From assembly GCA_028707495.1 (NCBI GenBank), contig JAQWAS010000005.1:1065-65064 (forward strand): DNA of 64,000 bases, in the 5' to 3' direction. Every line of letters starts with the position of its first letter. Position 1 is the stretch's first letter. This document shows, piece after piece, positions 1 through 42,009 of this stretch. Position numbers and translations under genes: made by a program. The DNA comes from Patescibacteria group bacterium (GTDB lineage Bacteria > Patescibacteriota > Patescibacteriia > UBA2591 > JAQWAS01). The notes under the pieces were generated by a model. That model was not told the DNA's origin. It made no database searches and saw nothing but the letters and a program-made list of their open reading frames with translations.

Positions 1-981
1 GAAAAAGAACTCAAGCACTACAAGAAACAATTTCGAGGCAAGATTGTTTATTGTAATTGTGATGATCCATACGAGAGCAACTTTTTTAAATACTTCGCAT
101 CCAACTTTAATGCCCTTGGATTAAAAAAGATTATCGCCACGAGTTACAGTGGTTCACCGATTATTGGAGGCCAATTACCTCTATTTCAAATGGCTGGCTC
201 AAAGGGCAAACAACCGCTCAAAATTGAGATTAAAGAAGTGCCAGACATAGATAAAGATGGGGCAATAAACCTTGACGATGTTAAGTATTTGCTCAAACAT
301 GATAAAAACACCGCCACCCCATTAAAAAGTAGCGGCGATTTTCGAAGTGATGAGTGTATAAAACTACTAAAGCAAGCCGATATAGTCGTAACCAATCCGC
401 CGTTTTCTTTGTTCCGTGAATACTTGGCTCAACTGATGGAATACAATAAGAAATTTTTAATTCTCGGCGATCAAAATAACATAACTAAAAAAGACATTTT
501 TAAATTTATAAAGGAAAATAAAGTATGGCTTGGTTACGATAATGGTGGCACAAAGTGGTTCCAGGTGCCAGATGATTATGATATTGCAACCGAGTCAAGA
601 AAAAAAATTGTAAATGGAATCAAGTACTTCAGTATGGGGAGAATTTTGTGGTTTACTAATCTTGAAACTACCAAGCGGCACGAGAATATTGTGTTGTATA
701 AAAAATATGTACCTGAAGAATTTCCTAAGTATGACAACTACAATGCCATTAACATTGACAAGGTTTCCGACATTCCAAAGAATTATAATAGAGTAATGGG
801 TGTTCCGATAACATTTATTGATAAATATAATCCCGAACAGTTTGAACTATTGGGAATTATGAATACAGGCGAAAAAAATATAGGCATAAGATACAAAGGG
901 ACACCACACGGAAGACCGCTTGTGAACGGGGTTGAAAAGTATCTTCGTATTTTAATAAAAATAAAAAAACTAAAAAAATAA
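1..981 (+). CDS. EcoRI-family adenine DNA methyltransferase (5' truncated by window edge)
   Basis: Frame +1 is open from base 1 (EKELKHY...VYCNCDDP); motifs GDFRS and VTNPPFSLFREY. Confidence 0.9.
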   Translation, partial: EKELKHYKKQFRGKIVYCNCDDPYESNFFKYFASNFNALGLKKIIATSYSGSPIIGGQLPLFQMAGSKGKQPLKIEIKEVPDIDKDGAINLDDVKYLLKHDKNTATPLKSSGDFRSDECIKLLKQADIVVTNPPFSLFREYLAQLMEYNKKFLILGDQNNITKKDIFKFIKENKVWLGYDNGGTKWFQVPDDYDIATESRKKIVNGIKYFSMGRILWFTNLETTKRHENIVLYKKYVPEEFPKYDNYNAINIDKVSDIPKNYNRVMGVPITFIDKYNPEQFELLGIMNTGEKNIGIRYKGTPHGRPLVNGVEKYLRILIKIKKLKK

Positions 982-982
982 T

Positions 983-2089
983 ATGAAAATCGATCTACAT
1001 AAAATCACAATTCGTAAAGTTATAGCTGGCTATAAAGATAGCGCCGAAGAAGGCGTAACGGCGTACGATGACAAATTAAATATTCGTCCAAAATATCAAC
1101 GTGAGTTTGTATACAAGGAAAAACAACGCAATGCAGTAATAGAAACTATCAAAAATAGCTTTCCGCTAAATGTGATGTATTGGATGATTAGAGAAGATGG
1201 CGGTTACGAAGTATTGGACGGACAACAGCGCACAATCAGTATTGGGCAGTATGTTACTGGCGATTTTTCACTGAACGACCGCTTTTTTCATAATTTAACC
1301 AAAGAGGAGCAGGAGAAAATTTTAGATTATGAATTGATGATTTATTTTTGCGAAGGCACGGACAAAGAACGACTGGATTGGTTTAGGATTATCAATATTG
1401 CCGGTGAAAAACTGACTGATCAGGAGATCCGCAATGCGGTTTATACTGGCCCATGGCTCTCGGACGCCAAATTAAAATTCAGCAAATCAAATTGTGTGGC
1501 GTACTTATTGGCAAATGACGGTGGCTCGCTTGTTAGTGGCTCACCAATACGACAAGAATATTTAGAAACAGCACTTTCTTGGATAAATGATGGCAAAATC
1601 GAAGATTACATGGCTAAACACCAGCACGATAAAAGTGCCGATGAGCTATGGGATTATTTTCAAAATGTAATTGCGTGGGCACGAGAGGCTTTTACTAATT
1701 ATCGCCGAGAAATGAGCAATGTGCCTTGGGGCGTGCTATACAACCAATTCAATAGTAAAAAAATTGATTCAAAGAAACTGGAAAAGGAAATAGCAAAGTT
1801 GATGCAGGACGAAGATGTGACTAAAAAATCCGGCATTTATGAATATGTTTTAACTAGAAATGAAAAGTTTTTGAATATACGAGCTTTCACCGAAAAAATG
1901 AAGCGTGAAGCATATGAGAGACAAAAAGGAATTTGTCCGCATTGTAAAGGCAAGAATAAAAAAAAGAAATGGGAAATTGAAGAAATGGAAGCCGACCATA
2001 TAAAGCCTTGGCACGAAGGCGGAAAAACAACTGCAGTAAATTGCCAAATGTTATGCAAACAAGACAATAGAACTAAATCAGGAAAATAA
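983..2089 (+). CDS. DUF262 (GmrSD-like) + C-terminal HNH endonuclease
   Basis: PKYQREFVY and VLDGQQR DUF262 motifs; CPHC...EADHIKPWHEGG...NCQMLC..DN HNH motif. Confidence 0.85.
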   Translation: MKIDLHKITIRKVIAGYKDSAEEGVTAYDDKLNIRPKYQREFVYKEKQRNAVIETIKNSFPLNVMYWMIREDGGYEVLDGQQRTISIGQYVTGDFSLNDRFFHNLTKEEQEKILDYELMIYFCEGTDKERLDWFRIINIAGEKLTDQEIRNAVYTGPWLSDAKLKFSKSNCVAYLLANDGGSLVSGSPIRQEYLETALSWINDGKIEDYMAKHQHDKSADELWDYFQNVIAWAREAFTNYRREMSNVPWGVLYNQFNSKKIDSKKLEKEIAKLMQDEDVTKKSGIYEYVLTRNEKFLNIRAFTEKMKREAYERQKGICPHCKGKNKKKKWEIEEMEADHIKPWHEGGKTTAVNCQMLCKQDNRTKSGK

Positions 2090-2162
2090 AGACAATATAT
2101 TACACCGAATGGAAGAATAAGGTATTTTATCATCCTACTTAAAAAAATTATTATTAAAAACA

Positions 2163-4766
2163 ATGTCAATAATAGCAGACATAATAGATTGGTCTGGTGG
2201 TAAACCAATATTTCTCCAGGAGGCCATTGGACGAATTATCCAAAAAAACGTCTTATCAGATGATGATATTTTAGAATTAACATTAATTTGCAAATCGGAG
2301 CAAGGACTAACAAAATATCAAGGAAATTTAATAGATCTAAAAAAAGTAAAAGAATCTTTAAAAGAGTCCGATGTATCTAACGCTGTTTCTGTGATAAAAA
2401 TTTTTTCGACGGAAAATATAAATGCTTTACAAAACAATTCTGAAATAGATATTGAAGAAAAAGGATTAACGGTTATATATGGTGACAATGGATCGGGAAA
2501 ATCTAGTTATGTCAGTATATTGAAACAAGTTTGCAACACGAGAGGAAGTATTCCCACAATTAATAAAAACCTTTTTATTGGATCTGCCGCGCAACAAAAT
2601 CAAAAAGCCAAAATACAGTACAAAACAGGAGAAAATGTGGCTTCGGTTACTTGGGAAAACAACAATTCAGACAGTAACATATTGAAGGCAGTGCACATAT
2701 ACGACACAAAAAGTGCAAGTTCTTATATTGAAGATGAAGATGAAATCGCTTTTATCCCTTCGGGTTTATTAATCGTAGAACAACTCGCCAATGTATGTAA
2801 TAGGATTGAAGAAAATCTCAGAAAAGAAATAGGACAAATAGAATCAAGAAAACTTGATTATTCATTTTTAATTAATGAAGAAGGTAATGGAATTCAAACT
2901 TTTTTAAAAAACCTTAGTGCAAGAAGTGATCTAAAAACATTAGACAATATCTCAAATTTTACGACTGACGATGAAAAGTTGCTAAAAGCAACAGAACAAG
3001 AAATCGCAAAATTAAAAACACTAGATCCTGCTCAAAAAATATCTGAAAATAATAAAATTATATCTCGTTTTAACTCTCTAAAAGCAAGGTACGAGCAGAT
3101 ACTATCTAAATTATCTATTGAAAAAATTGAAGAAATAAAAAAAGACGTTCTAAAGAGCACTGAACTTCAAAGCGCAAGCAAAGCTCTCACCGAACAAACC
3201 TTTTCGGATTTACCACTGAAAAGTATTGGGTCTCAACCATGGAAAGTATTATGGGAAAGCGCAAAGAGATTTTATCAATATTCTGAATCAAAAAATTTTC
3301 CTGACCACGACGAAAGCTCAGTGTGCCCTCTTTGTTTACAAAATTTAAGTGATGAGGCAAAAGAAAGATTTAAAAATCTCGAGGCATTCGTACAGTCAGA
3401 TATACAAAATCAAATAAACGCCATTGGGATTAAATTGCGTCAGTCAAGTCAAGAAATTTCGAGTATTAATTTGAATTTTTCGGAAATTGAAACCACCCTT
3501 AATGAACTCGATGAAATATCTAGTAATTTTAAGCAACGGCACGCAAATCAAATAGATACAATTAATAAGTACGTAATTTCTGTAATGAACTTACTTGCAG
3601 GACGAGAAAGCCCTGGGTCATTTAATGCGCAAGAGCTATCTATAGATCTGATTGAAGTAATAAAGAAAATTGTAGAAAAAATTGAGGAAGAAAATAAGAC
3701 GCTGTTACAAAAATCATATCAAAAAGACCTTGAAGCACAAGCAAAGACTCTTTCATTGCTAAAATCTAAAAAAGATTTATCTGAAAATAAAGAAAAAATA
3801 AAAGACGAGATAAAAAGACAACGTTTTGTAGATGGTCTATTTTTATGTATACGAACTTGCAACACGAGACATATTTCAATTTTAAGCAACACATTATCAG
3901 AACAGTACATCACAGAAACGCTCAAAAATAACTTTACAGATGAACTAAAAAGACTTGGTTTTACTGGAGTAGAAATAGTTACATCAACTCGAAGTAGAAG
4001 CGGAAAACAATATCATTTTCTTGAATTAGATTCATCATATGGAAGTAACGCGAACTTGAAGGAAATACTAAGCGAGGGAGAACACAGATGTATTTCTTTG
4101 GCTACGTTTTTGTCGGAACTTTCCATTTCAGGACATAAATCTTCAATTATATTTGATGATCCGGTCTCTTCTCTAGATCATAAATGGCGAAAAAAAATTG
4201 CTAAAAGAATTGTAGAAGAATCACAGGAAAGACAGGTTATTGTTTTTACACATGACATTACTTTTTTAATGAACCTTCAAGAGTTTGATGACGAAATAAA
4301 AATCCAAAGCTTGACTAGAAAAAAATTTGAAACTGGCATATCCTCAAAAAATCCACCATGGGATGCATTATCTACAAAAAATAGAATCAAAATATTAAAG
4401 GAATACTTACAGCAATTAGAAGAGGCCAAAAATACTGAAACAGAAGAAATTTATAAAGAAAAATCTAAAGTATTTTATGGACAACTTCGTGAAGCATGGG
4501 AAAGATGTATTGAGGAGGTTGTTTTGAATGAATCTGTACAAAGATTTGGTCGTTCTATACAAACTAAACGACTAGAAAAAGTTGTTGATTTAACGGAGGA
4601 AGACTATAAAATTATTGAAGATAATATGGAAGAATGTTCAACTTATCTTACGGGCCATGATAGTGCAGGAGAATTAATTGAAGAGGCGCCCACAATTGAA
4701 GAAACAAAAAATGACTTAGCCGCTTTAGAAATTTTTACAAAAACCATACACAAGAGAAGACAATAA
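2163..4766 (+). CDS. Rad50/SMC-like ABC ATPase with zinc hook and possible C-terminal HEPN-like domain (RloC-like)
   Basis: Walker A GDNGSGKS, coiled coil with CPLC, signature LSEGE, Walker B IIFDDP, H-loop FTHD; C-terminal LREAWE...GHD. Confidence 0.7.
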   Translation: MSIIADIIDWSGGKPIFLQEAIGRIIQKNVLSDDDILELTLICKSEQGLTKYQGNLIDLKKVKESLKESDVSNAVSVIKIFSTENINALQNNSEIDIEEKGLTVIYGDNGSGKSSYVSILKQVCNTRGSIPTINKNLFIGSAAQQNQKAKIQYKTGENVASVTWENNNSDSNILKAVHIYDTKSASSYIEDEDEIAFIPSGLLIVEQLANVCNRIEENLRKEIGQIESRKLDYSFLINEEGNGIQTFLKNLSARSDLKTLDNISNFTTDDEKLLKATEQEIAKLKTLDPAQKISENNKIISRFNSLKARYEQILSKLSIEKIEEIKKDVLKSTELQSASKALTEQTFSDLPLKSIGSQPWKVLWESAKRFYQYSESKNFPDHDESSVCPLCLQNLSDEAKERFKNLEAFVQSDIQNQINAIGIKLRQSSQEISSINLNFSEIETTLNELDEISSNFKQRHANQIDTINKYVISVMNLLAGRESPGSFNAQELSIDLIEVIKKIVEKIEEENKTLLQKSYQKDLEAQAKTLSLLKSKKDLSENKEKIKDEIKRQRFVDGLFLCIRTCNTRHISILSNTLSEQYITETLKNNFTDELKRLGFTGVEIVTSTRSRSGKQYHFLELDSSYGSNANLKEILSEGEHRCISLATFLSELSISGHKSSIIFDDPVSSLDHKWRKKIAKRIVEESQERQVIVFTHDITFLMNLQEFDDEIKIQSLTRKKFETGISSKNPPWDALSTKNRIKILKEYLQQLEEAKNTETEEIYKEKSKVFYGQLREAWERCIEEVVLNESVQRFGRSIQTKRLEKVVDLTEEDYKIIEDNMEECSTYLTGHDSAGELIEEAPTIEETKNDLAALEIFTKTIHKRRQ

Positions 4767-4893
4767 GGAGTTTTGGGCTACGGGCATTCACCCCTTTAAT
4801 TCCCCTCTGCCCTTCGCCCAAAACGGAAAAAGAAATTTTAAAATTTTTTAAAACAATTCCGACTGCTGTCGGATAAAAGAAAAGGAATACATC

Positions 4894-4996
4894 AGCTAAC
4901 ACGGCATATCTGGTTACGGTTCGCCTCCGGCGAGCCTCCACCCATATTTTACTTCGCTTCGCTCTGTAAAACATCAGATATGCCGAAACGTTATAC
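4894..4996 (+). mobile_element. attC-like recombination site 1
   Basis: AGCTAAC-A-CGGCATATCTG ... CAGATATGCCG-AAAC-GTTATAC, intergenic. Confidence 0.8.
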
Positions 4997-5059
4997 GAAA
5001 TTCACTCCGCCCCACCTCAAAGACAAACTTTTATAAAATAGCTTAAATCTATCTAAAAT

Positions 5060-5731
5060 ATGGATCAAAAATTTCAAAAAATCAAAGAAGCTGTAGAAAA
5101 GGAACTTTCCTGTTCTGCTCACAATATGGATCATGTAATGAGAGTTTATAATCTTTCTTTGCATCTTGCTGAAAATAAAGATATTGATTTAGATGTTCTC
5201 AAAGCATCTGCTTTATTACATGATATCGCAAGAGTCAAAGAAGATAATGATCATACTGGAAAAACCGATCATGCAATCTTAAGCTCTGAAATGGCAGTGC
5301 CAATTTTAAAAGAACTTGATTTTTCAGAAGAACAAATTAAGCACATTCAAGATTGCATAATCTCACACAGATACAGAACAGGAAATGAAGCTAAAACCAA
5401 AGAAGCTCAAATTCTATTTGACGCAGATAAATTAGACACTCTTGGTGCAATCGGAATTGCAAGAAGTTTTGTCTGGGTTGGAAGAAATAACGCCAAAATT
5501 TATACAGATACCAATATTGAAAAATATATAGATGAAAATTTAGGCGGAAAAATAAACGGAAGAATCCAAGACAAAACTAAACATAGTCCGCAAATAGAAT
5601 TTGAAACGAAATTGAAATTTTTGATCACTAAGTTGCATACTGATAAAGCTAAAGAAGTATGCAAAGAAAGAATTGAATTTTATAAAAGTTTTTTAGATAG
5701 ATTAAAAAGCGAAATTAATGGTGAACTATAA
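5060..5731 (+). CDS. HD-domain phosphohydrolase (cassette A)
   Basis: AHNMDH, LLHDI, DHA, SHR and DADKLD motifs. Confidence 0.9.
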   Translation: MDQKFQKIKEAVEKELSCSAHNMDHVMRVYNLSLHLAENKDIDLDVLKASALLHDIARVKEDNDHTGKTDHAILSSEMAVPILKELDFSEEQIKHIQDCIISHRYRTGNEAKTKEAQILFDADKLDTLGAIGIARSFVWVGRNNAKIYTDTNIEKYIDENLGGKINGRIQDKTKHSPQIEFETKLKFLITKLHTDKAKEVCKERIEFYKSFLDRLKSEINGEL

Positions 5732-5797
5732 AACGGTGGGGCTCCGTGAACTCAAGGGGACGCTGCGCTTTCACTCCACTTCGTTTCGTTCACCCTC

Positions 5798-5897
5798 GTA
5801 TAACAAGGGATAAAAGGAAAATTGCTCGGCTCGCAATTTTCCCAAATTTTTCTTTCACTCCGTTCCAGAAAAACTTCTTTTATCCCCGATGTTATAC
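5798..5897 (+). mobile_element. attC-like site 2
   Basis: GTATAAC-AA-GGGATAAAAG ... CTTTTATCCC-CGAT-GTTATAC; GTATAAC complements upstream GTTATAC at 4990. Confidence 0.8.
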
Positions 5898-5966
5898 GAA
5901 ATAATTAAATTCTTTTGGCTATCGCCAAAAATTATTGGGGCAAATTTTTATTTTATTTTTTAGAAC

Positions 5967-7019
5967 ATGAACAAAAACCAAATCATAACATTATCAGGAT
6001 ATAGTATCATCCATGGGATTATAGACCTATGCTGTGCAGTGGTTGTTTTTAGTACATTACTATATCATGGTTATGATGCAAAAGATGTCTTTATTTTTGT
6101 CGTGGCTTACAATGTAATAGCTTTTGGACTACAAGCACCTTTTGGATTTTTAGTGGATAGATATCAAGTCCCCAAAGAAAGCGCTTTAATTGGTTGTATT
6201 TTAGTTTTATCTTCTTTTTTTATATTTAGTATACCTGCTTTGGTTATAATATTATCAGGATTAGGAAATGCTTTTTTTCATGTTGGCGGAGGAAGTATCA
6301 GTTTAAATTTTAATCCAACCAAAGCAACTGCACCGGGGATTTTTGTTGCGCCGGGCGCGCTAGGGCTAACAATCGGAATCATGGTTGGTAAAAGCGGATC
6401 ATTTATTTCTTGGCCTTTTGTTTTATTGCTTATTGCTTCATGTCTATTTATTATCTCTAGAAAAATCCCAGAAATTAACTATCAAAAAATATCGGCCAAA
6501 CCAAAAATTAAGTACTTTGAATTAATTATCATATTGCTTTTACTTTCTGTCGCAATAAGGGCTCTTTATGGCTTAGCCGCCGCTTGGAAAACTGACTTTA
6601 ACTTATTATTGATTTTGACCTTTGCAATAGTCGCTGGCAAGGCATTAGGTGGAATTTTTGCTGATAAGTTTGGATGGATAAAAACCGCAATTTTTGCGTT
6701 GGTAGTTTCAGCTCCCTTGCTTGCTTTTTTCCAAAGTTCACCAATACTAGCTATAACTGGTGCATTTTTATTTCAAATGACCATGCCAATAACATTAACT
6801 GCTCTATCGAACATGCTTCCAGGCAGATCAGCCACTGCTTTTGGTTTAACGGTTTTAGCTTTGATTATAGGCGTTATTCCTACTTACATTGGAGCCAAGC
6901 CATTTTTAAACAATCAATGGATAACTCTTGCAATTGTAGCCATATCTGCAAGTTCGCTACTAATTAGTTTCAAATTTTTGTATAATTATTTCAAAGGTCA
7001 ACTTAAAATTAATTTATAA
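5967..7019 (+). CDS. MFS-like multi-pass membrane protein (cassette B)
   Basis: Many hydrophobic segments; GFLVDRY and GIFADKFG resemble MFS motif A. Confidence 0.7.
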   Translation: MNKNQIITLSGYSIIHGIIDLCCAVVVFSTLLYHGYDAKDVFIFVVAYNVIAFGLQAPFGFLVDRYQVPKESALIGCILVLSSFFIFSIPALVIILSGLGNAFFHVGGGSISLNFNPTKATAPGIFVAPGALGLTIGIMVGKSGSFISWPFVLLLIASCLFIISRKIPEINYQKISAKPKIKYFELIIILLLLSVAIRALYGLAAAWKTDFNLLLILTFAIVAGKALGGIFADKFGWIKTAIFALVVSAPLLAFFQSSPILAITGAFLFQMTMPITLTALSNMLPGRSATAFGLTVLALIIGVIPTYIGAKPFLNNQWITLAIVAISASSLLISFKFLYNYFKGQLKINL

Positions 7020-7036
7020 TTTAATCAAAATAGCTT

Positions 7037-7291
7037 ATGAAAAAAATCAAAACAGTCTTAATAACCCTTTCCTTCTTCGCAGTTTCATCGCTAATGTTTG
7101 CACAAAATGCGCTAGCGGATTTACTGCCTCCTCCTGATGGCGGATGGGACACTCCAAGCAGACCAAACATCAATCCAGAACCAAAAACTTTTATTGATTT
7201 AATTGAACCACAACATATTGTTATTGGCGGAGCAGTTTTGGCTGTAGTAATAATATCTTTTGTAGTGCTCTTTAAAATGAGAAAAAAATGA
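7037..7291 (+). CDS. Small exported, membrane-anchored protein (cassette B)
   Basis: Signal peptide ending ALA-D, Pro-rich linker, C-terminal TM followed by KMRKK. Confidence 0.7.
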   Translation: MKKIKTVLITLSFFAVSSLMFAQNALADLLPPPDGGWDTPSRPNINPEPKTFIDLIEPQHIVIGGAVLAVVIISFVVLFKMRKK

Positions 7292-7635
7292 GATTAGAAT
7301 ACTATTTTCTAGCTCTAATTTTAACTCTAATAATTGAGCTATCCATAGCTTATGTTTTTGGATTTAGGAGTAAAAAAAACATTGTTACGATTATTTTTGC
7401 TAATTTCATAACACACCCCTTGCTTTGTTATTTTTTATGGATGAATTCAGTTATCTTTGTTATTCCAATTAATTACATTTCAATTATTGTTTTAGAGGTA
7501 TTGGTTGCATTATTAGAATCAGCTCTATTATTTTTAGCACTAAAACAAAAATACTTAGATATGTTAAAATTATCATTTGGTATAAACATAGTATCTTTTC
7601 TTGTTGGTTTATTAATATTCAAAAATAATTTTTAA
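7288..7635 (+). CDS. Small multi-TM membrane protein (cassette B)
   Basis: Hydrophobic ORF; ATGA overlap with the upstream gene. Confidence 0.7.
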   Translation: MRLEYYFLALILTLIIELSIAYVFGFRSKKNIVTIIFANFITHPLLCYFLWMNSVIFVIPINYISIIVLEVLVALLESALLFLALKQKYLDMLKLSFGINIVSFLVGLLIFKNNF

Positions 7636-7704
7636 ATAAGGAAAAATAAAATAAAAATTTGCCCCAATAATAACTCGCTATCGCTCGTTGAATTTAATTA
7701 CATC

Positions 7705-7791
7705 ATATAACAGCGTGTATGAGGCTACGGCTTTTTACAAAAGCCTTCGCCCAAATTGCTTCGCAACTTCTCATACGCGCGAACGTTATAC
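7705..7791 (+). mobile_element. attC-like site 3
   Basis: ATATAAC-A-GCGTGTATGAG ... CTCATACGCGC-GAAC-GTTATAC. Confidence 0.8.
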
Positions 7792-7846
7792 GTCGTAATA
7801 AAAATCCTCCTTATATTTTTTAATAATTTTGGTAACTTATAAAATT

Positions 7847-8086
7847 ATGAAAACACTAGAACAAAGAGAACCGCAATCAACACCAAATCAAGAATTAGAC
7901 AATCTTAAAAAAGAATTGGAAGAAAAAGGATATGTCGTGACAGAAACATCCCAACGTGGACAAAAGACTGATGTTACTATAAAAAATGATCTTGGTCAGG
8001 AAGGTAGTGGTGAAGGATATACATACGAAACAGCGCTTAAAAAAGCAATAACAGCTTTAGATTACATTATAAAAAATAAACTATAA
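7847..8086 (+). CDS. Small protein, possible dsRBD-like fold (cassette C)
   Basis: ATG at 7847; pattern P..EL...Y.V...V.I....GSGEG.T...A...A..AL. Confidence 0.55.
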   Translation: MKTLEQREPQSTPNQELDNLKKELEEKGYVVTETSQRGQKTDVTIKNDLGQEGSGEGYTYETALKKAITALDYIIKNKL

Positions 8087-8113
8087 AAAAAGGAATCGAC
8101 TTTTTATTACGAC

Positions 8114-8186
8114 GTATAACACCGCATATCCAACATACTTTTTCACTCCATTCAAAAGTACGTCGGATCATGCAGAAACGTTGTGC
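8114..8186 (+). mobile_element. attC-like site 4
   Basis: GTATAAC-ACC-GCATATCC ... GGATCATGC-AGAAAC-GTTGTGC. Confidence 0.8.
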
Positions 8187-8310
8187 GACATACATTTTTT
8201 ATCTCTTCTACAATTGAAAGTCAGAATTGAAATCAGGAAACAAAACAAGATTTTTGATTTTTAAGGAGGGGAATAAGGAACTTTTTTATCTAAATTAATG
8301 AAAAAAATTA

Positions 8311-8964
8311 ATGAAAAAAAATTTAGGAGTTATAAAAAACGGTTTATTCACAGGGTTTGTAATTCAATTGGCAATTGGACCAATCTTCTTTTTTGTGATT
8401 AATCTTACTCTTCAGAAAACCATTCTTGATGGGCTAATGGGAGTTTTTGCGGCGACAATTGTTGGATACATTTACATTGCTCTTTCTGCTTTTGGTATCG
8501 GAAAATTGCTCGAAAATAAAAAAACAAGTAAAATATTTGCAGCAATTAGTTCAATTGTTCTAATAATTTTTGGAGGAATAATTATAAAAGGAGCTTTAAG
8601 TAGCGGAGTTTCTGATAGTGTGATCAATACATCAAGTCTTTTTTCTAGCTTTACATCCGTTTTTTTACTTGCGATTTCTAATCCATTGAGCATTGTCTTT
8701 TTTACAAGTCTGTTTTCAACAAAAGCAATTGAATATAATTATACGAAAAAAGAACTGTATTTTTTTGGTCTAGGGACTGGATTATCAACTTTGATATTTA
8801 TGGGTGGTGCTGTTTTGATTTTTTCTTTACTCAAAGGCACAATACCAACAATTGTTATGCAAATACTGAACATAATTGTAGGAATTCTAATAATCGGATA
8901 TGGTACAATGAGATTGGTAAAACTTTTGAAAGAAAATAGGTTGGCTCGCAAAATTCACCCCTAA
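8311..8964 (+). CDS. LysE/RhtB-family transporter (cassette D)
   Basis: GF...LAIGP N-terminal motif, LAISNP motif, about 6 TM segments. Confidence 0.85.
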   Translation: MKKNLGVIKNGLFTGFVIQLAIGPIFFFVINLTLQKTILDGLMGVFAATIVGYIYIALSAFGIGKLLENKKTSKIFAAISSIVLIIFGGIIIKGALSSGVSDSVINTSSLFSSFTSVFLLAISNPLSIVFFTSLFSTKAIEYNYTKKELYFFGLGTGLSTLIFMGGAVLIFSLLKGTIPTIVMQILNIIVGILIIGYGTMRLVKLLKENRLARKIHP

Positions 8965-9071
8965 CCCCTCTTTTGCTCGCCAAATGGAAAAAATCTTGTT
9001 TTGTTTGGCTTGAAAAATAAGGTCTAGATTGTAATTCACGAGATAAAAAATGTACTAAACCCTACGGGGTC

Positions 9072-9140
9072 GCACAACTGCCACTATCCGACATCCTCCG
9101 CTATCGCTACGGACGATCGGATCAGTGGCATACGTTATTA
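9072..9140 (+). mobile_element. attC-like site 5 (last of the array)
   Basis: GCACAAC-TGCCACTATCCGA ... TCGGATCAGTGGCA-TAC-GTTATTA; GCACAAC complements GTTGTGC at 8180. Confidence 0.8.
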
Positions 9141-9145
9141 AATTT

Positions 9146-10795
9146 TTATCTATCAATATAATTCTTAAAATCCGCACTATTTTTCCATTGCTGGTAGGAA
9201 AGACTTGGATGCACTGTTTTACCACCAAAACGCACAGCCTGTTCAATGGCTTTAATTGGATAACCACGATTCTGGTAGGCATCAGTTAACGTCTGAAAAT
9301 TAGCATTATTCAAATTCACGCTCCCAAATTTGCGTTGTAAAATATCTCTTAATTCAGCTTCTGATGAACGGTTCATCACAGTTTGATAATCTAAACTATG
9401 TTGCCAAGTTTGCCAGCTAATGGCTGGATGTACAGTCTTACCACCAAAACGCAGAGCTTTAACTATCGCTTCGATAGGATAACCACCATACATATAAGCA
9501 CGTAGCAAAACTTGATAATTATTGTCTGTTAAATTATATTCACCTATATTTTGATTTAATAAATATTCCAATTCATCTTTTTTATTATCAATCGTAGCCT
9601 GAGCGTAGGTTGGTTTAAAATAATTTTGCGCTTGAAGTTTGTCTGGACCTTTGGGACTATAGCCATATTTAATTTCATGACCGTCTGGATAGCCATCTCT
9701 ATCTGTATCTGCGTTGTTGGGATCGGTACCAATTTCAATTTCATAACTATCAATTAAACCATCGCCATCTGTATCAACTAATTGACTAGTTGGCTGAGCC
9801 GTGACTGGATTAACTGGTGTCGGCTTGGTGGTAAATGACATTTCGTCGGTAGTTAATTTACGACCGTATAAAGCATCATAAATGTTGATTTTATAATAAT
9901 ATTTAGTGTCCGGCTCTAAATCAATCAAAGTAATAGCATGTTCTAATTCTTGACTATCCTTGACCACATCCAAAGTCTGACCATTCTTACCCGGCTGTGT
10001 CCCATAAGAAATTTTACTTTTACTAATTAAATTGGTTCGCCAATCCAACGTGGCTTTAGTGTTAGTAATTTTAGTCCCATCGGGATCTAGGGGTGTTAAA
10101 TCTTTAATTTGTAAAATAGAATAGTCCACTGTACTAATTTGTGTTCGACAGCGTAAAACATGAAAACTTTTATTGCCCGCTTCATCAAGCGCTTCAATTT
10201 TAACTCGATAGGCCTGATTGCGTCCAAGTTTATAAATAAATAAAACGTGCTCTTGATGGTATTTATTATAACCAGTTTTTTTATAGTTGATTTCAGTCGC
10301 TAAACTATCAACATTATCAATGCCATAATAAATTGTAGCTTTGGTTGGTTCATTGGTTTTCCAATATAAAGCGATGGCATCGTTGGTTGTTTGTAAAACT
10401 TCGGCTTTTTCAATTTTAGGATCAATCGTGTCAATCATATCTTTAGTTGAAAAAGCTTGAATAAAAGATTCGGTTTGTTCTTGCAAACGATTGAAAGCTA
10501 AAATTTTAAAATAATAAGTCTGATTTTTTTCTAAACCAGTCATCACTGATTCGTGTCGTATTTCATACAAACTATAGCCAACCCATTTATCTAAGTGCTC
10601 ACGATTTAAACCATAATAAACAATCCCACGCGTCGGATTGCTTAAAGTTGACCACTTGATTCTAGCCGTGCCGTCTTTTAAATCATAAATTTCAATCTGG
10701 CTAATATCAACCTCTTGCGCTTGAACAATTCTGAGTGGCGCAATTAAACTTAAAACTATAATTAAAATTAAACTTATTTTGAATCTATTTCGCAT
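9146..10795 (-). CDS. Secreted protein with three Fn3-like repeats, Ca-binding DTDGDG repeats and a duplicated C-terminal domain
   Basis: Signal peptide; W.T....YG...L.P.T.YY repeats; DTDGDGLIDSYE; RFGGKTVHP twice. Confidence 0.8.
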   Translation of the reverse strand: MRNRFKISLILIIVLSLIAPLRIVQAQEVDISQIEIYDLKDGTARIKWSTLSNPTRGIVYYGLNREHLDKWVGYSLYEIRHESVMTGLEKNQTYYFKILAFNRLQEQTESFIQAFSTKDMIDTIDPKIEKAEVLQTTNDAIALYWKTNEPTKATIYYGIDNVDSLATEINYKKTGYNKYHQEHVLFIYKLGRNQAYRVKIEALDEAGNKSFHVLRCRTQISTVDYSILQIKDLTPLDPDGTKITNTKATLDWRTNLISKSKISYGTQPGKNGQTLDVVKDSQELEHAITLIDLEPDTKYYYKINIYDALYGRKLTTDEMSFTTKPTPVNPVTAQPTSQLVDTDGDGLIDSYEIEIGTDPNNADTDRDGYPDGHEIKYGYSPKGPDKLQAQNYFKPTYAQATIDNKKDELEYLLNQNIGEYNLTDNNYQVLLRAYMYGGYPIEAIVKALRFGGKTVHPAISWQTWQHSLDYQTVMNRSSEAELRDILQRKFGSVNLNNANFQTLTDAYQNRGYPIKAIEQAVRFGGKTVHPSLSYQQWKNSADFKNYIDR

Positions 10796-34184: not shown

Positions 34185-34382
34185 TTAAGCTTTTTTAACT
34201 TGAACAGCGGAATCTCCTTTGGGAGTGTTTTCAATTTCAAATGTGACTAAATCACCTTCGTGTAATTCTTCAAAGTCAACGCCTTCTAGGCTGTTAGCAT
34301 GAAAAAAAACATCTTTGTCATTGTCTTCACGTGAAATAAAGCCAAAGTTTTTGTCCGTTATTTTTTTTATAGTACCTTGCAT
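34185..34382 (-). CDS. Cold-shock domain protein
   Basis: KNFGFI and DVFFH RNP motifs. Confidence 0.95.
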   Translation of the reverse strand: MQGTIKKITDKNFGFISREDNDKDVFFHANSLEGVDFEELHEGDLVTFEIENTPKGDSAVQVKKA

Positions 34383-34721
34383 GTGAATGTAAAATAAGAT
34401 TAATTAGAATAAACATTAACGTAGAAATTCGACTTTATATCCACTTTTTAATATTTGTCTTCCTTGTTGTCCAAGGAGAAGTTTTTAAGCTTATGTTTAT
34501 TATATAGCTAAAAGATATTTTTGTCAAGGGGTGATGTTTTTTAAAATTATTTTTTGTTACATTTTTTATTTTAAAACGTATAATATTATATAACCATTTT
34601 AATTAGTCATGACTTTAGAATTAAGTTATAATAAAGAAAAGATGTTTAAATTTATACAAAAAGTTTGGTGGAAATTTAATCGACCATCAGATTCAAGATT
34701 AATTTTAAAATACGGTTTAAC

Positions 34722-35294
34722 ATGGAAAAATTATCAATCATACAATTAGTTAAAAAATGTCAGCAAGGCGAAGTGGATTATTTTACACAGCTTTATGATG
34801 AATATGTAGATAAAATTTATAAATTTATCTATTATAAAACTTGGCACCAGGAAACGGCAGAGGATTTAACTTCGGAAGTTTTTTTAAAAGCTTTAAAAAA
34901 TATTCAAAATTATAATGTTAATAAAGCACATTTTTCAACCTGGTTATATCAAATTGCTCGTTATAGTGTAATTGATTATTATCGACGATATAAAACAGAG
35001 ATTAATATTGAAGATATTTGGGATTTAGATGATGGTATTGATCTTGAACAAGACATTGTTAATCGCGAGTTATTAAATAAAATTAGAAACCTTTTAAAGA
35101 CGCTTAAGCCACAACAACGGGAAATAATTATTTTACGCGTGTGGCAGGGCTTAAACTATCAAGAGATTAGTCAAATTACGGGACAGACTTCAGCTAGTTT
35201 AAGAATGATGGTGGGGCGGGTTTTAAAATTAATTCGTCAGCAAGACTTTAATCTATTAGTTTTAATATGTTTAATTAAATTAATTAAAATATAA
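34722..35294 (+). CDS. ECF sigma factor
   Basis: AEDLTSEVF, FSTWLYQIAR, region 4 HTH. Confidence 0.9.
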   Translation: MEKLSIIQLVKKCQQGEVDYFTQLYDEYVDKIYKFIYYKTWHQETAEDLTSEVFLKALKNIQNYNVNKAHFSTWLYQIARYSVIDYYRRYKTEINIEDIWDLDDGIDLEQDIVNRELLNKIRNLLKTLKPQQREIIILRVWQGLNYQEISQITGQTSASLRMMVGRVLKLIRQQDFNLLVLICLIKLIKI

Positions 35295-38601: not shown

Positions 38602-39012
38602 TTAGCGGATAAGTTTTTTGACTAGTTGAGCGTCTTTCACAGTAATAAAATGGTCAGAATTCATATCATTTGCTTTAATAAAACATTCAGCTACGCAAGA
38701 TTTTTTAGCATTCACTTCCTTCTTTTTGGCAGAAGTCTGGTTTTTAATAAAAGTCTGAATAAGATTAAAATCTTCTTTGTCATATTTACCATTGCAATTA
38801 GCATCCCCTTTTAAGGGTGGTAAATTTATACAACTATAAGGTAAAGTATAACCATAAGAATAACCATAAAGACGATCTACTCTGGTATTTTTTATTTTAT
38901 TAGCCAAAAGAAGGCCAGCAGCGACAGAGCCAATAACCGCTAGGCTAACTAGGGCAACTGTTACTAATTTAGTTTTATTAGCATTTTTGATTTTGATTAA
39001 TGTTTCGTTCAT
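38602..39012 (-). CDS. Membrane-anchored dockerin-like protein
   Basis: KGDANCNGKYDKED ... DMNSDHFITVKD paired Ca-loops. Confidence 0.65.
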   Translation of the reverse strand: MNETLIKIKNANKTKLVTVALVSLAVIGSVAAGLLLANKIKNTRVDRLYGYSYGYTLPYSCINLPPLKGDANCNGKYDKEDFNLIQTFIKNQTSAKKKEVNAKKSCVAECFIKANDMNSDHFITVKDAQLVKKLIR

Positions 39013-39081
39013 GTGTTTAATTTTTTAAAGTTTTTTAATATTAATTTATATTAAGCTTTTTTATTTTTAATGTCAATTTTT

Positions 39082-42009
39082 TTATTTTAGAGTAATATTT
39101 ATTTTAGGACTAACATAAGTATTTTGGCGATTGTCAACCACCTCTAAATAGAGCTGATAATTGCCAGTCGAAGGGGCCTCTGGCCAGGTTAAATATAAAT
39201 GTGACAAAGATTCGGGATTCGTTAAGGTGCCAATTAAATTAGTTTGATCGCCGGTTTGATAATAGAATTTAATTTGATAGATTGGTCGATTAAAACTAAC
39301 TGAGGCCGAAATATTTATGGGGAAGTCAGTTGAATTTAAAGTTTGATTAGCTTGAGGGTTAAACCAAAAAACTGTAGGTTGATTAATATTATAACTATTA
39401 TTAGTATAATTAAAATTAACTTCTTGGCTAGCGCTGTTGTCAAATTGATCATAAGCAACGGCTTTTAAGATATGTTGCCCGGATGATAAATTAAAAGCGT
39501 TGGTATTTAACATGTAGTAAGGTTGGGACTTAGAAGCGCCAATAAATTGATTATCAACATAATATTCAACCCGGGAAATGGTTCCTTGTTTGGCATTGGC
39601 TGTTGCTTGACATTGAATGGTTTCATTAAACGTGTTATTGGCTTGGGGTGAGATAATTTGAATTTCAGGTTGACTACCAGGTATGTGGACATCATCATAT
39701 TCGGTGGGTGGTTGTTCTTGGTTATAATTATTCTCTTCAGCCCAATGGCGAATAGTCTCTTCCCATTTTTCAAATTGAGAATCTTTTTCGGGTTTATCCG
39801 GAGCAGGACCGAGTGGATCGTTTTTATCTACATAATACAGAATGCTATGGACATCAAAATAGGTTTTTTCTTCAATCATACTGACAGGGGTAAAATCCGT
39901 TGCCAATTTGCCAGAAATTTTATCAATTTTAACTATTTGCTCATTACCAATTTGACCGTTTAACATCGGCTTATCTATTTCTGGTAAGTCTGGCATATCA
40001 GAAAATTTTTCAATTGGTTGTTTCTCTAAAGCTTGTTGCATAAAGTTGTGCCAAATTGGTCCAGCCATGACGCTACCACTAGCCCCTCGTTTCATTTCAG
40101 AGTTGTCATTATTACCCACCCAAACGCCAGTCACCAACGAGGGAGTGTAACCAATTGTCCAAGCATCGCGATAATCATTGGTGGTACCGGTTTTAGCTGC
40201 AACCGGGCGATCGCCAAGTTGTAAAGAAGAGTTTAAACCAAAAACATAAGCGCGGGCTTGATTATCAGATAATACATTATTAATAATTTGAGCTGTTTTT
40301 TTATTTAAAACACGTTTGGATTTAGCTTCTTCGGGTTTAAATTCAAACAAAATTTCATCTTTATCATCTACAATTTTTAAAATAGCCTGAGTGTCATATT
40401 TTAATCCTTCTTGACTTAAAACACCATAAGCAGCGGTGTGTTCAAGAAGTTTAACTTCGCCACCACCGAGGACTAAACTTAAACCATAGTGCTCAGCTGA
40501 TTTTAAAGTAGAATAACCGAAGTCTTTTAATAAATCTAAAACATCTTCTGGGCCAACCAAATATAACAATTTAACTGCTGGAATATTTAATGAGCCAGCT
40601 AAAGCTTGACGTAAGGAAACTGGACCATGACTTTCAGTGTCGTAATTGTGGGGGATATAATTACCACCATCACCACTGGAGCCAAAATTAGTTTCTAAAT
40701 CAAAAAGAATTGATTCAGGTTGATAACCATTATCAAAGGCTAGAGTATAAACAAAGGGTTTTAAGGACGAACCTGGTTGACGAGGGCGTAAAGTTACATT
40801 AACTTGGCCATCAATTTCTTCATTAAAAAAATCTTTAGAGCCAACCATGGTTAAAATTTCACCAGTTTTAGGATTGAGTGAAACCATGGCAGCATTACTG
40901 GCATTATATTGCTCGCCACGTTTTTCCATTTCTTGTTGAATAATTTCTTCAGCCATTTTTTGTTTATCAAAGTCTAAAGTTGTATAAACCTTAAAACCAC
41001 CATTTTCAATAGTACGTTCGCCATAGCGTTTAGTTAAAAGTTCTTTAATATACATGACAAAGTGCGGTGCATCAATATTTTCTCGTGGCGTTTTAATTTC
41101 CATAATTTCATCTTGAGCCTGCTTGGCTTCATCTTTGGTTATGTAATCTTCTTTAGCCATTAAGTTTAAAATATGATTACGCCGACCAAGTAAAACATCT
41201 TGATTATTAAAATAATAAGTTGGAGATTGAGGCATGGCAGCTAGGGTAGCGGCCTCAGCCAGGGTTAATTCGGTTGTGGATTTATGTAAAAAAGTTTGAG
41301 CCGCCGATTCAACACCATAAGCCGTTGAGCCATAAGGGATTTCGTTTAAATACATTTTTAAAATTTCATCCTTGGAGAATTTTTTTTCAATTTGATAAGA
41401 TAAAATTAATTCTTTGATTTTGCGACTGTAAGTTTTTTCTTTGGATAAAATAGCATTTTTAACAAATTGTTGGGTTAAAGTTGAGCCGCCAGCTGTTTGA
41501 CCTTTTAAAACATTAGTAATGGCGGTACGAAAAATAGCCCACAAGCTGAAACCTTTGTGATGATAAAAATCTTTATCCTCGGCGGCAATCGTGGCCCATT
41601 TTACATAATCGGGGATTTGGTCTAGTTCTAACAATGTTCTTTTTTGATCACCATGAACTTCATACAAAACATGTTCACCGGTGCGGTCATAGATTTTAGT
41701 ACTTTGAGCAACTGAGCGATCTAATAGATGGTTGGGGTCGGGTAAATCGCGGCTATACCAAGCAAAAGCACCGAGTAAAAAAATTGTGGCAATGAGAAAT
41801 AAAATTAAACCAACAGGAATTAGACGTTTAATTAATTGAGGGCTAATTTTAAAATTAGATCGGCAACTGCCTGGTCGGCGATATTTATAATTAAAAGTTT
41901 TAGGCGCGTTGGGTCTTTTTTTATGAGGAATAAAACTTGAACGCTGGTTGATTTGACGTTTACTCCAGTCGCGCGGTGATTTAGATGATGATAATTGAGG
42001 TATGGGCAT
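39082..42009 (-). CDS. Class A penicillin-binding protein (PBP1A family) with C-terminal Ig-like domains
   Basis: EDKDFY, GGSTLTQQ, RKIKE, SSLK, SLN, KTG. Confidence 0.95.
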   Translation of the reverse strand: MPIPQLSSSKSPRDWSKRQINQRSSFIPHKKRPNAPKTFNYKYRRPGSCRSNFKISPQLIKRLIPVGLILFLIATIFLLGAFAWYSRDLPDPNHLLDRSVAQSTKIYDRTGEHVLYEVHGDQKRTLLELDQIPDYVKWATIAAEDKDFYHHKGFSLWAIFRTAITNVLKGQTAGGSTLTQQFVKNAILSKEKTYSRKIKELILSYQIEKKFSKDEILKMYLNEIPYGSTAYGVESAAQTFLHKSTTELTLAEAATLAAMPQSPTYYFNNQDVLLGRRNHILNLMAKEDYITKDEAKQAQDEIMEIKTPRENIDAPHFVMYIKELLTKRYGERTIENGGFKVYTTLDFDKQKMAEEIIQQEMEKRGEQYNASNAAMVSLNPKTGEILTMVGSKDFFNEEIDGQVNVTLRPRQPGSSLKPFVYTLAFDNGYQPESILFDLETNFGSSGDGGNYIPHNYDTESHGPVSLRQALAGSLNIPAVKLLYLVGPEDVLDLLKDFGYSTLKSAEHYGLSLVLGGGEVKLLEHTAAYGVLSQEGLKYDTQAILKIVDDKDEILFEFKPEEAKSKRVLNKKTAQIINNVLSDNQARAYVFGLNSSLQLGDRPVAAKTGTTNDYRDAWTIGYTPSLVTGVWVGNNDNSEMKRGASGSVMAGPIWHNFMQQALEKQPIEKFSDMPDLPEIDKPMLNGQIGNEQIVKIDKISGKLATDFTPVSMIEEKTYFDVHSILYYVDKNDPLGPAPDKPEKDSQFEKWEETIRHWAEENNYNQEQPPTEYDDVHIPGSQPEIQIISPQANNTFNETIQCQATANAKQGTISRVEYYVDNQFIGASKSQPYYMLNTNAFNLSSGQHILKAVAYDQFDNSASQEVNFNYTNNSYNINQPTVFWFNPQANQTLNSTDFPINISASVSFNRPIYQIKFYYQTGDQTNLIGTLTNPESLSHLYLTWPEAPSTGNYQLYLEVVDNRQNTYVSPKINITLK

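Follow-up and report, generated by a model that had tools for sequence, protein, structure and literature searches.

A cassette array in a reduced patescibacterial genome, probably a satellite in a dispersed integron-like system whose recombinase lacks the IntI insertion

The stretch of DNA analysed here (the window, 64,000 nucleotides (nt) or C14:1065-65064, C14 being one of the contigs of the studied genome, G000) belongs to a Patescibacteria group bacterium whose genome of 857 kb in 19 contigs is rated 100% complete. Between a restriction and defence block and a convergent chromosomal gene, it contains a row of co-oriented genes separated by five imperfect hairpins that run from AAC to GTT and recall the attC sites of integrons (Table 1). 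An earlier reading made from the sequence alone had given the positions and lengths of these hairpins (103, 100, 87, 73 and 69 bp) and four pairs of complementary cores, and all of these were recovered as written, three of the pairs being perfect and one having a single mismatch. The same sequence-only reading took the host for a reduced genome of the Candidate Phyla Radiation (CPR) type, which agrees with the top named homologues of its short tyrosine recombinase, the close ones being labelled Patescibacteria or Moranbacteria. We believe that the window holds the far end of one array in a distributed integron-like gene-capture system served by a single recombinase that lacks the insertion of integron integrases, a reading that we put at roughly three in four from the sequences available.

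A scanner for the pattern AAC-arm...arm-GTT, run over positions 4800-9300, returned four sites scoring at least 10 and five scoring at least 8.8, all on the plus strand, compared to means of 0.04 (maximum 1) and 0.3 (maximum 2) in 100 dinucleotide shuffles, a control that is lenient because the spacer lengths were chosen after the window sites were known. The open reading frames (ORFs) between the sites are co-oriented as had been described, although not always single, since the segment 5891-7791 holds three. A sixth attC-like site was found just upstream of the window (C14:48-131), so that the restriction and defence block before 4894 is itself a cassette of 5.8 kb, with perfect closure of its cores (GTTAGCT/AGCTAAC). 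A promoter and terminator scan of the array gave 18 promoter-like sites versus 18.6 in shuffles, i.e., no excess.

The anatomy of the sites is regular. In a structure alignment of 41 of them the layout is AAC, one base, an 11-bp stem, a two-base bulge in the right arm, three or four bases and GTT. The stem cells are paired in 94.8% of cases, a figure that is partly built in, as sites were selected for pairing, and covariation within the stem reaches 0.525, against 0.108 when shuffled and at most 0.101 when slid. Among 64 sites, extra single bulges affect the right arm in nine and the left arm in none, and the spacers are 1/4 in 50 and 1/3 in eight. The bottom strand folds more stably in all five window sites and in 62 of 64 others. 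The attC-like signature described earlier stands as far as the joining of cassettes at G|TT is concerned, but these are not canonical attC sites, because the bulges are on the other arm and the central spacers measure 1 versus 3-4 bases; neither extrahelical bases on the R''-L'' arm nor central spacers of 5-6 nt are present. The available text of Nivina et al. (PMC5027507) locates the extrahelical bases of canonical sites close to L'' and across from the bottom-strand triplet, gives spacers of 5-6 bases and site lengths of 57-141 bp, and reports that inverting all extrahelical bases lowers bottom-strand recombination by IntI1 by more than 3-4 orders of magnitude. Judging by their sequence, the sites studied here resemble those inverted mutants. 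In the single cyanobacterial IntI-linked site that we folded, the bulge is on the left arm, and the match to our site model is poor (E 0.44). We also considered that the sites could be canonical attC in reverse, and rejected this because a site moves with its upstream gene and a cassette body directly follows attI.

Some of the hairpins carry a gene in their loop. Three such sites were found in the C8 array (L104), at 39509-40310 (802 nt), 38879-39411 (533 nt) and 34348-34833 (486 nt), with loop ORFs of 150 amino acids (aa; Phage_30_3/NADAR-like) and 51 aa on the reverse strand and of 117 aa on the forward strand, and each of them comes after a gene-less cassette body of 40-111 nt. Relatives have seven further cases, 387-702 nt long and spread over six loci (L065, L068, L075, L078, L079, and L098). 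Two other long-hairpin candidates, one on C14 and one in L064, were dropped, each consisting of two ordinary sites of one family.

The segments between sites behave as units of exchange. Of the 22 assembled cassettes, 17 have start and end cores that are perfectly complementary, and in 19 there is at most one mismatch between the two, while a permutation control gave a mean of 3.4 and a maximum of 10 in 10,000. This closure, together with the presence of the same cassettes beside other neighbours in a second array, in the genome G066 and in metagenome contigs (the variants of cassette order that the sequence-only reading had proposed to look for), bears out its suggestion of a gene-capture platform. 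The 79-aa cassette has a second copy in the C8 array (97.9% over 428 nt) with other neighbours and the same downstream site; since it travels with that site, the crossover must lie at the right core. The leader and ORF of the LysE cassette are also duplicated there (98.2% over 798 nt), joined to another tail and site. Coverage in the metagenome run X1, possibly the source sample itself, is about 30 along the array as a whole and rises to 65-75 over the two duplicated cassettes; the 79-aa cassette stands at 75 against about 30, and one unitig stops at the cassette borders. Run X2, from another study and with a depth of 3-4, has a contig in which the match to the chromosome begins exactly at 9134, preceded by different DNA, and a second contig that departs from the window array at 9138. 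The three-gene cassette is found in G066, a member of another family, with 80.9% identity from exactly 5891, and two marine metagenome contigs resemble the DNA of the HD cassette from 4989 to 5795. In 13 of 19 cassettes longer than 250 nt, the terminal inverted repeats exceed the 95th percentile of cross-pairs. Among the genes carried are three restriction-modification sets, PDC-S06 and PDC-S57 candidates, two Fic proteins, transporters and small enzymes.

The HD protein has relatives further afield. In its 90% cluster, two of the 15 listed members are labelled Nanoarchaeota (93-95% identical), and copies with about 80% identity occur in archaeal-looking contigs (L137, L139) with no cassette site there. 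An exchange of the gene between CPR bacteria and DPANN archaea is possible on these similarities, and we mention it as a lead.

It had been stated that there is no integrase in the window, and indeed the PF00589 matches of the genome lie only on contigs C2, C11, and C19. The array is nevertheless not an orphan, because attI-like sites are present at four places in the genome and a different contig encodes a short recombinase. The site family is present at both ends of C14, at the start of C4 and at the ends of C8 and C17, with 18 matches to the site model in the genome. A 17-bp core ending in GTT is repeated exactly four times (C2:14678, C4:3108, C13:141, and C17:1872), inside about 95 bp of DNA common to all. 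Only the C2 copy adjoins a recombinase; the other three are solo, each heading its own array, and behind every head there are cassettes that run off the contig. The four heads adjoin different genes (dnaG, phosphoglycerate mutase, a Mur ligase and a Rny-like ORF, the last named by eye), and so do the four far ends, those of the window array, the right of C14, C8 and C17, two of which are 55 kb apart on one contig. The exact motif had no match in 300 genomes of the class, so it is specific to this genome.

The way in which the assembly breaks is informative in itself. Contig overlaps are of 127 nt, and the last 127 nt of C2, C13, and C4 start at the crossover G, the first 127 nt of C14 end on GTT, and C8 and C17 have 127 nt in common that end five bases past the crossover. 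With overlaps bounded at the crossover, the assembly branches where cassettes are exchanged. The start of C17 overlaps the end of C14 by 127 nt, and therefore one array is complete. One cassette is reached from both C4 (after attC) and C13 (after attI), and the two join exactly at G|TT. It starts with GTTAGGC, which matches the GCCTAAC core and the tail type at the start of C14, so that the window array is probably headed by a solo site. From these matches we regard it as quite likely that the window array is a satellite, with either the C4 or the C13 solo site at its head in place of the one adjacent to the recombinase. The first cassettes on C4 and C17 close perfectly on the core of the solo head itself.

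A few other features of the heads were noticed. A palindrome, TCATAA-N5-TTATGA (C2:14605-14625), overlaps the start codon of the recombinase and marks the start of the block common to the four heads, and similar sequences are found at the start of several close homologues of the enzyme; it is possible that it is an operator or a second recombinase box. The first cassettes C4:121-3108 and C17:1872 to C14:70038 carry unrelated genes (restriction-modification vs. transporters), with the leader and attI block 87% alike over 218 nt and the tail and site 96% alike over 241 nt, a hint of one shell with swapped cargo that might be a clue to how cassettes are made. Gene-less first cassettes, with bodies of about 30 nt, stand behind attI in several genomes (L080, L081, L086, and L092).

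A search for tyrosine recombinases with or without the IntI insertion, another of the checks proposed beforehand, found three in the genome: that of C2 has no insertion, that of C11 is XerD-like and that of C19 is a true IntI. The short one (C2:13762-14613, 283 aa, 29.7% GC, 25% at third codon positions (GC3)) lies 3 nt upstream of dnaG and faces away from the core C2:14678-14694, about 65 nt upstream of its start, which looks like an attI beside its integrase gene with the first cassette joined at G|TT. It matches PF00589 with 147 bits and TIGR02249 in two pieces (4-181 and 233-315; 234 bits, below the cut-off of 265), the IntI insertion being absent, and the alignment with the C19 enzyme also shows it without the I2 (intI_Cterm) insertion. 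It passes NF040815, the archaeal XerA-type model (244.5 vs. 220). Its best solved relative by both sequence (E 6.5e-52) and fold is VchIntIA (2a3v), with 13 residues at the position of the insertion instead of the 55 in 2a3v; the fold was predicted from a 100-row alignment (pLDDT 81.7), as the single-sequence prediction (45) was unusable. Residues R140, R233, H256, and Y265 are invariant, and K165 and H230 nearly so, among 100 aligned of at least 120 homologues. In a quick 34-row tree the short enzymes and IntI stand apart from three Xer-like rows (SH-aLRT 98). On these comparisons the short recombinase appears to be the closest kin of the integron integrases, without their insertion.

The same layout is found in relatives. 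The short recombinase is present in 103 of 300 genomes of the class (E<=1e-55), and a true IntI in none of the same 300 (E<=1e-70). Around 46 recombinase loci, selected by score and flank length, there were 64 sites upstream pointing away from the gene, three in the opposite direction and one downstream (450 kb and 205 kb scanned). At least one site was found in 25 of the 46, and an attI-like core upstream in 36 of 44. In 19 of 41 plus-strand matches the contig stops less than 1 kb upstream of the gene, against two of 65 minus-strand matches in which it stops less than 1 kb downstream. The site model matches 30 of 35 enzyme-positive genomes, 15 of which supplied training sites. Solo attI copies recur as well. 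Of 14 secondary loci that the site model picked out in eight genomes, nine have a copy of the genome's own attI to or near the crossover, one a partial copy and four none, although one of these four has a consensus-like core. The single-contig genome G216 has three exact copies of 33 nt at 109, 538, and 952 kb, G249 has three exact copies of 35 nt and G110 two (one mismatch), and each of these is absent from the other four genomes compared. No remnant of a recombinase was detected in 20 secondary loci. Long chromosomal genes in the same orientation stand immediately before several of the solo sites and might provide transcription by read-through. As far as their contigs indicate, solo attI copies heading recombinase-less arrays are general among relatives. 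A related-locus search of genome contigs gave eight loci, one of them with a clear array.

Two loci deserve separate mention. In G066, a genome of three contigs, about 20 sites stand behind an attI-like head (G066:C1:227000-271000, L126) in an array that holds the three-gene cassette of the window. The contig L029, labelled Gastranaerophilales, combines the short recombinase with sites of this family and with an HD cassette that is 70% like the one in the window; this is either transfer or misbinning.

Table 1. Features of the window and its immediate surroundings (window positions unless a contig is named)
Feature	Position	Strand	Remarks
3' part of 5.8-kb defence cassette	1..4893	+	Cassette begins upstream of the window, C14:125
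T5orf172 protein of defence cassette	Upstream of window		
EcoRI-like methylase, defence cassette	Ends at 981	+	
GmrSD-N/HNH nuclease, defence cassette	983-2089	+	
AAA ATPase, defence cassette	2163-4766	+	PADLOC PDC-S06
Non-coding tail of defence cassette	4767-4893	+	Inverted repeat of the cassette leader
attC-like site 1, 103 bp	4894..4996	+	Crossover G|TT at 4990; 80.8 bits with the site model, itself in the training set
HD-domain protein cassette, including its site	4990..5897	+	ORF 5060-5731; core GTTATAC/GTATAAC
attC-like site 2, 100 bp	5798..5897	+	Crossover at 5891
Three-gene cassette	5891..7791	+	Long terminal inverted repeat
Membrane protein like the major facilitator superfamily, three-gene cassette	5967-7019	+	A lead: MFS_1 on 11-36% of members of the nearest clusters
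84-aa ORF, three-gene cassette	7037-7291	+	
115-aa ORF, three-gene cassette	7288-7635	+	
attC-like site 3, 87 bp	7705..7791	+	Crossover at 7785
Cassette with 79/85-aa ORF	7785..8186	+	ORF 7829-8086; weak UPF0180 match below cut-off
attC-like site 4, 73 bp	8114..8186	+	Crossover at 8180
LysE-type exporter cassette	8180..9140	+	ORF 8311-8964
attC-like site 5, 69 bp	9072..9140	+	Crossover at 9134; far end of the array
Convergent chromosomal gene, 549 aa	9146..10795	-	Fibronectin-III/TSP3 repeats; bounds the array, not a cassette
Last intact attC-like site of the second array, 141 bp	63748..63888	-	Array headed by the solo attI-like site C17:1872

The sites and their pairing, the four heads, the exchange of cassettes at G|TT and the repetition of this layout in relatives can be read from the contigs themselves. 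The mechanism that we propose goes further. The 283-aa recombinase would act in trans on all four arrays, pairing a double-stranded attI (two inverted boxes of about 11 bp around 6 bp, as in Xer sites) with the folded bottom strand of a cassette site. One strand would be exchanged at G|TT, and replication would resolve the junction, by analogy with integrons (Escudero et al., 2016; PMC4792948). The bulges of the downstream arm may do the job that extrahelical bases and insertion do together in IntI, and they are a candidate for blocking the second exchange without I2. Our best guess is that attI would be copied by the recombinase, as the start of the shared blocks falls on or close to an upstream palindrome that resembles a box (over the start codon of the recombinase in G000, near the upstream box in G216 and G249). 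Such a system would seem to function like an integron, and yet it lacks the IntI insertion and has its bulges on the wrong side, two of the properties by which integrons are defined. More speculatively, and leaning slightly against it ourselves, we suggest a second and simpler kind of integron in small-genome bacteria, with a pre-insertion enzyme and mirror-image hairpins, that seeds copies of its own attI around the chromosome so that one enzyme feeds several capture points, with cargo taken up at either end of the folded site, in the body or in the loop, and a pool common to different families and perhaps to DPANN archaea.

There are observations that weigh against a distributed system of this sort. 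Five of the 22 cassettes have no perfect closure, and the window array is not joined to any attI in the assembly. One site on C17 (C17:62833-62932) is a chimera with unpaired arms that come from different site families, probably a dead end from homologous exchange. No circle joint appeared among the 15 of 38 joints shown, which come from contigs, and these cannot show circles. No upstream site was found in 21 of the 46 recombinase loci (several with less than 1 kb of flank), and five of the 14 secondary arrays have no full match to the genome's own attI. The site model matches 14 of 35 genomes without the enzyme at the threshold used versus 15 of 20 enzyme-positive ones outside training; five of those 14 were searched again, and one has the enzyme at 9e-54 and four only distant recombinases. 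The association of enzyme and site across genomes is real but loose. The short recombinases do not come together as a resolved clade in the quick tree (support 40). The available text of Cury et al. (10.1101/030866) counts 50 insertion-less recombinases near attC sites in complete genomes and judges them not to be IntI. 

One could suppose that the satellite arrays, including that of the window, are frozen relics of a duplicated or rearranged unit of recombinase and attI in which the gene was lost, so that cassettes would now move between them only by homologous recombination in the tails and sites that they have in common. The shared block of G000 does extend to the start codon of the recombinase, older attI copies in G320 and G294 are only 69-84% identical, the LysE copy on C8 and the last site of C17 look like exchanges within shared tails, and G066 keeps an attI-like head and 22 sites with only a distant recombinase, which also counts against our own interpretation. 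However, the solo heads retain exact cores of 17-35 bp, and both the cassette that follows attI on C13 and attC on C4 with joins exactly at G|TT and the perfect closure of first cassettes on the cores of solo heads on C4 and C17 are hard to reconcile with relics, which we find rather unlikely. We consider it distinctly less probable that these are ordinary attC clusters that have no integron integrase (CALINs, common in the literature as far as the sources available indicate) served by the canonical IntI of C19 or by a lost one, with the short recombinase as an unrelated Xer-like neighbour. The C19 enzyme, on a contig of 3.8 kb, is a genuine IntI (435.6 bits on TIGR02249, cut-off 265), which speaks against our reading, and the short enzyme passes the XerA-type model. 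On the other side, the C19 gene has 49.7% GC (GC3 52.6%) versus 29.7% for the short gene, only one of 754 core tiles being as GC-rich, and the bin holds three more contigs at 51-60% GC (C3, C5, and C16), likely foreign too. As the composition of C19 as a whole is within the host range (0.351 vs. a maximum tile of 0.416), its being contamination is likely but not proven. The site model finds no site of the studied family on C19, IntI is in none of the 300 class genomes, the genome has a separate XerD-like gene, and bulges on the other arm cut IntI1 recombination as reported in the available text of Nivina et al. (PMC5027507). On composition and distribution we have rejected the C19 IntI as the driver of the arrays.

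That the four arrays are an effect of assembly or binning, i.e., strain variants of one array or foreign contigs, seems very improbable. The genome is split into 19 contigs, with a break at a repeat in every array, but heads and far ends adjoin different chromosomal genes, two far ends share a contig, array depth is even (about 30), and the single-contig G216 has three heads. Least credible of all is that the hairpins are repeats of the repetitive extragenic palindrome or miniature inverted-repeat transposable element type, or terminators, spread by another enzyme, and that the genes between them are not recombination units. It is true that GC-rich sub-hairpins occur within the loops and that the terminal inverted repeats of many cassettes are long; against this stand the closure of cores cassette by cassette, the attI-like heads, the orientation away from the recombinase, and an Rfam search of 4500-9400 that gave three chance matches (best E 0.39) and no fitting family. 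The joins at G|TT largely refute it.

The distributed system that we favour shares much with sedentary chromosomal integrons: a recombinase facing away from attI and from a co-oriented array, AAC and GTT triplets with the crossover at G|TT, sites that travel with the upstream gene, a better folding bottom strand and a cargo that is defence-rich or of unknown function. The best sequence and fold match of the enzyme is from the V. cholerae integron (VchIntIA, PDB 2a3v). Unlike in those integrons, there is no IntI insertion, the bulges are on the L'-R' arm instead of R''-L'', the spacers are of 1 vs. 3-4 nt instead of 5-6 on each arm, and the sites measure 53-198 nt, or 387-802 with a gene in the loop, instead of 57-141. 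There are also several attI per genome where integrons typically have one, according to the available text of Neron et al. (PMC9024848). With Xer recombinases (XerC/D and archaeal XerA) the enzyme shares the absence of the insertion and the pass on NF040815, XerA structures being the next-best matches, and the attI core is made of two inverted boxes around 6 bp, which we take to be a likeness to dif. It is unlike them in being closer to IntI than to the three Xer-like rows of the quick tree, and unlike a Xer/dif housekeeping system in its patchy distribution (103/300), its two to four cognate sites per genome heading cassettes and the presence of a separate XerD-like gene.

Contig C14 has at least two attC-type sites without intI nearby, as CALINs would, but the sites are non-canonical and the head of the array is unassembled; in the portions of that literature available, an enzyme elsewhere in the genome is among the proposed sources of such clusters. 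Unlike CALINs or attG, these arrays have at their head a true copy of the attI that belongs to the genome itself, exact over 17-47 nt and similar over as much as about 95 nt, and no broken intI adjoins them, whereas attG sites differ greatly from att sites in the available text of Loot et al. (bioRxiv 10.1101/2022.09.11.507474). We take the window array to be more than a CALIN, probably one satellite of an integron-like system that is spread over several loci and has a recombinase without the insertion. Ghaly et al. (2022; 10.1101/2022.02.06.479319) describe archaeal IntI with the insertion, and the main texts of that work and of Neron et al. (PMC9024848) are silent on Patescibacteria; the group is not among the integron-bearing phyla listed in the available text of Ghaly et al. 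(2021; PMC8618304). Our literature search found no paper on an insertion-less system or on several attI copies per enzyme, most subscription papers and the supplements, where patescibacterial CALINs may be listed, lying outside it.

The origin of the I2 domain and of attC has been presented as a chicken-and-egg paradox (Escudero et al., 2016; PMC4792948, available text). An enzyme without I2 that is associated with hairpin-bounded cassettes would make this question testable with one gene and two short sites. Some integrase-less arrays would owe their origin to solo attI copies, a concrete source other than intI decay or off-target insertion. Because about a third of the class genomes searched carry the short enzyme and none IntI, surveys that look for IntI would overlook a main way in which these reduced genomes may acquire genes for restriction, Fic proteins, transport and metabolism.

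Two observations concern DNA outside the arrays. The 549-aa protein that bounds the window array looks secreted and has a duplicated C-terminal block. Other hairpin repeats are scattered through the genome (C6:57413, C6:78446, C7:18896, C10:2706, and C4:16934-17077), among them the CAGCATGAC/GTCATTCTG family and a tandem of AACAACC that faces its complement, and they do not belong to the cassette-site family.

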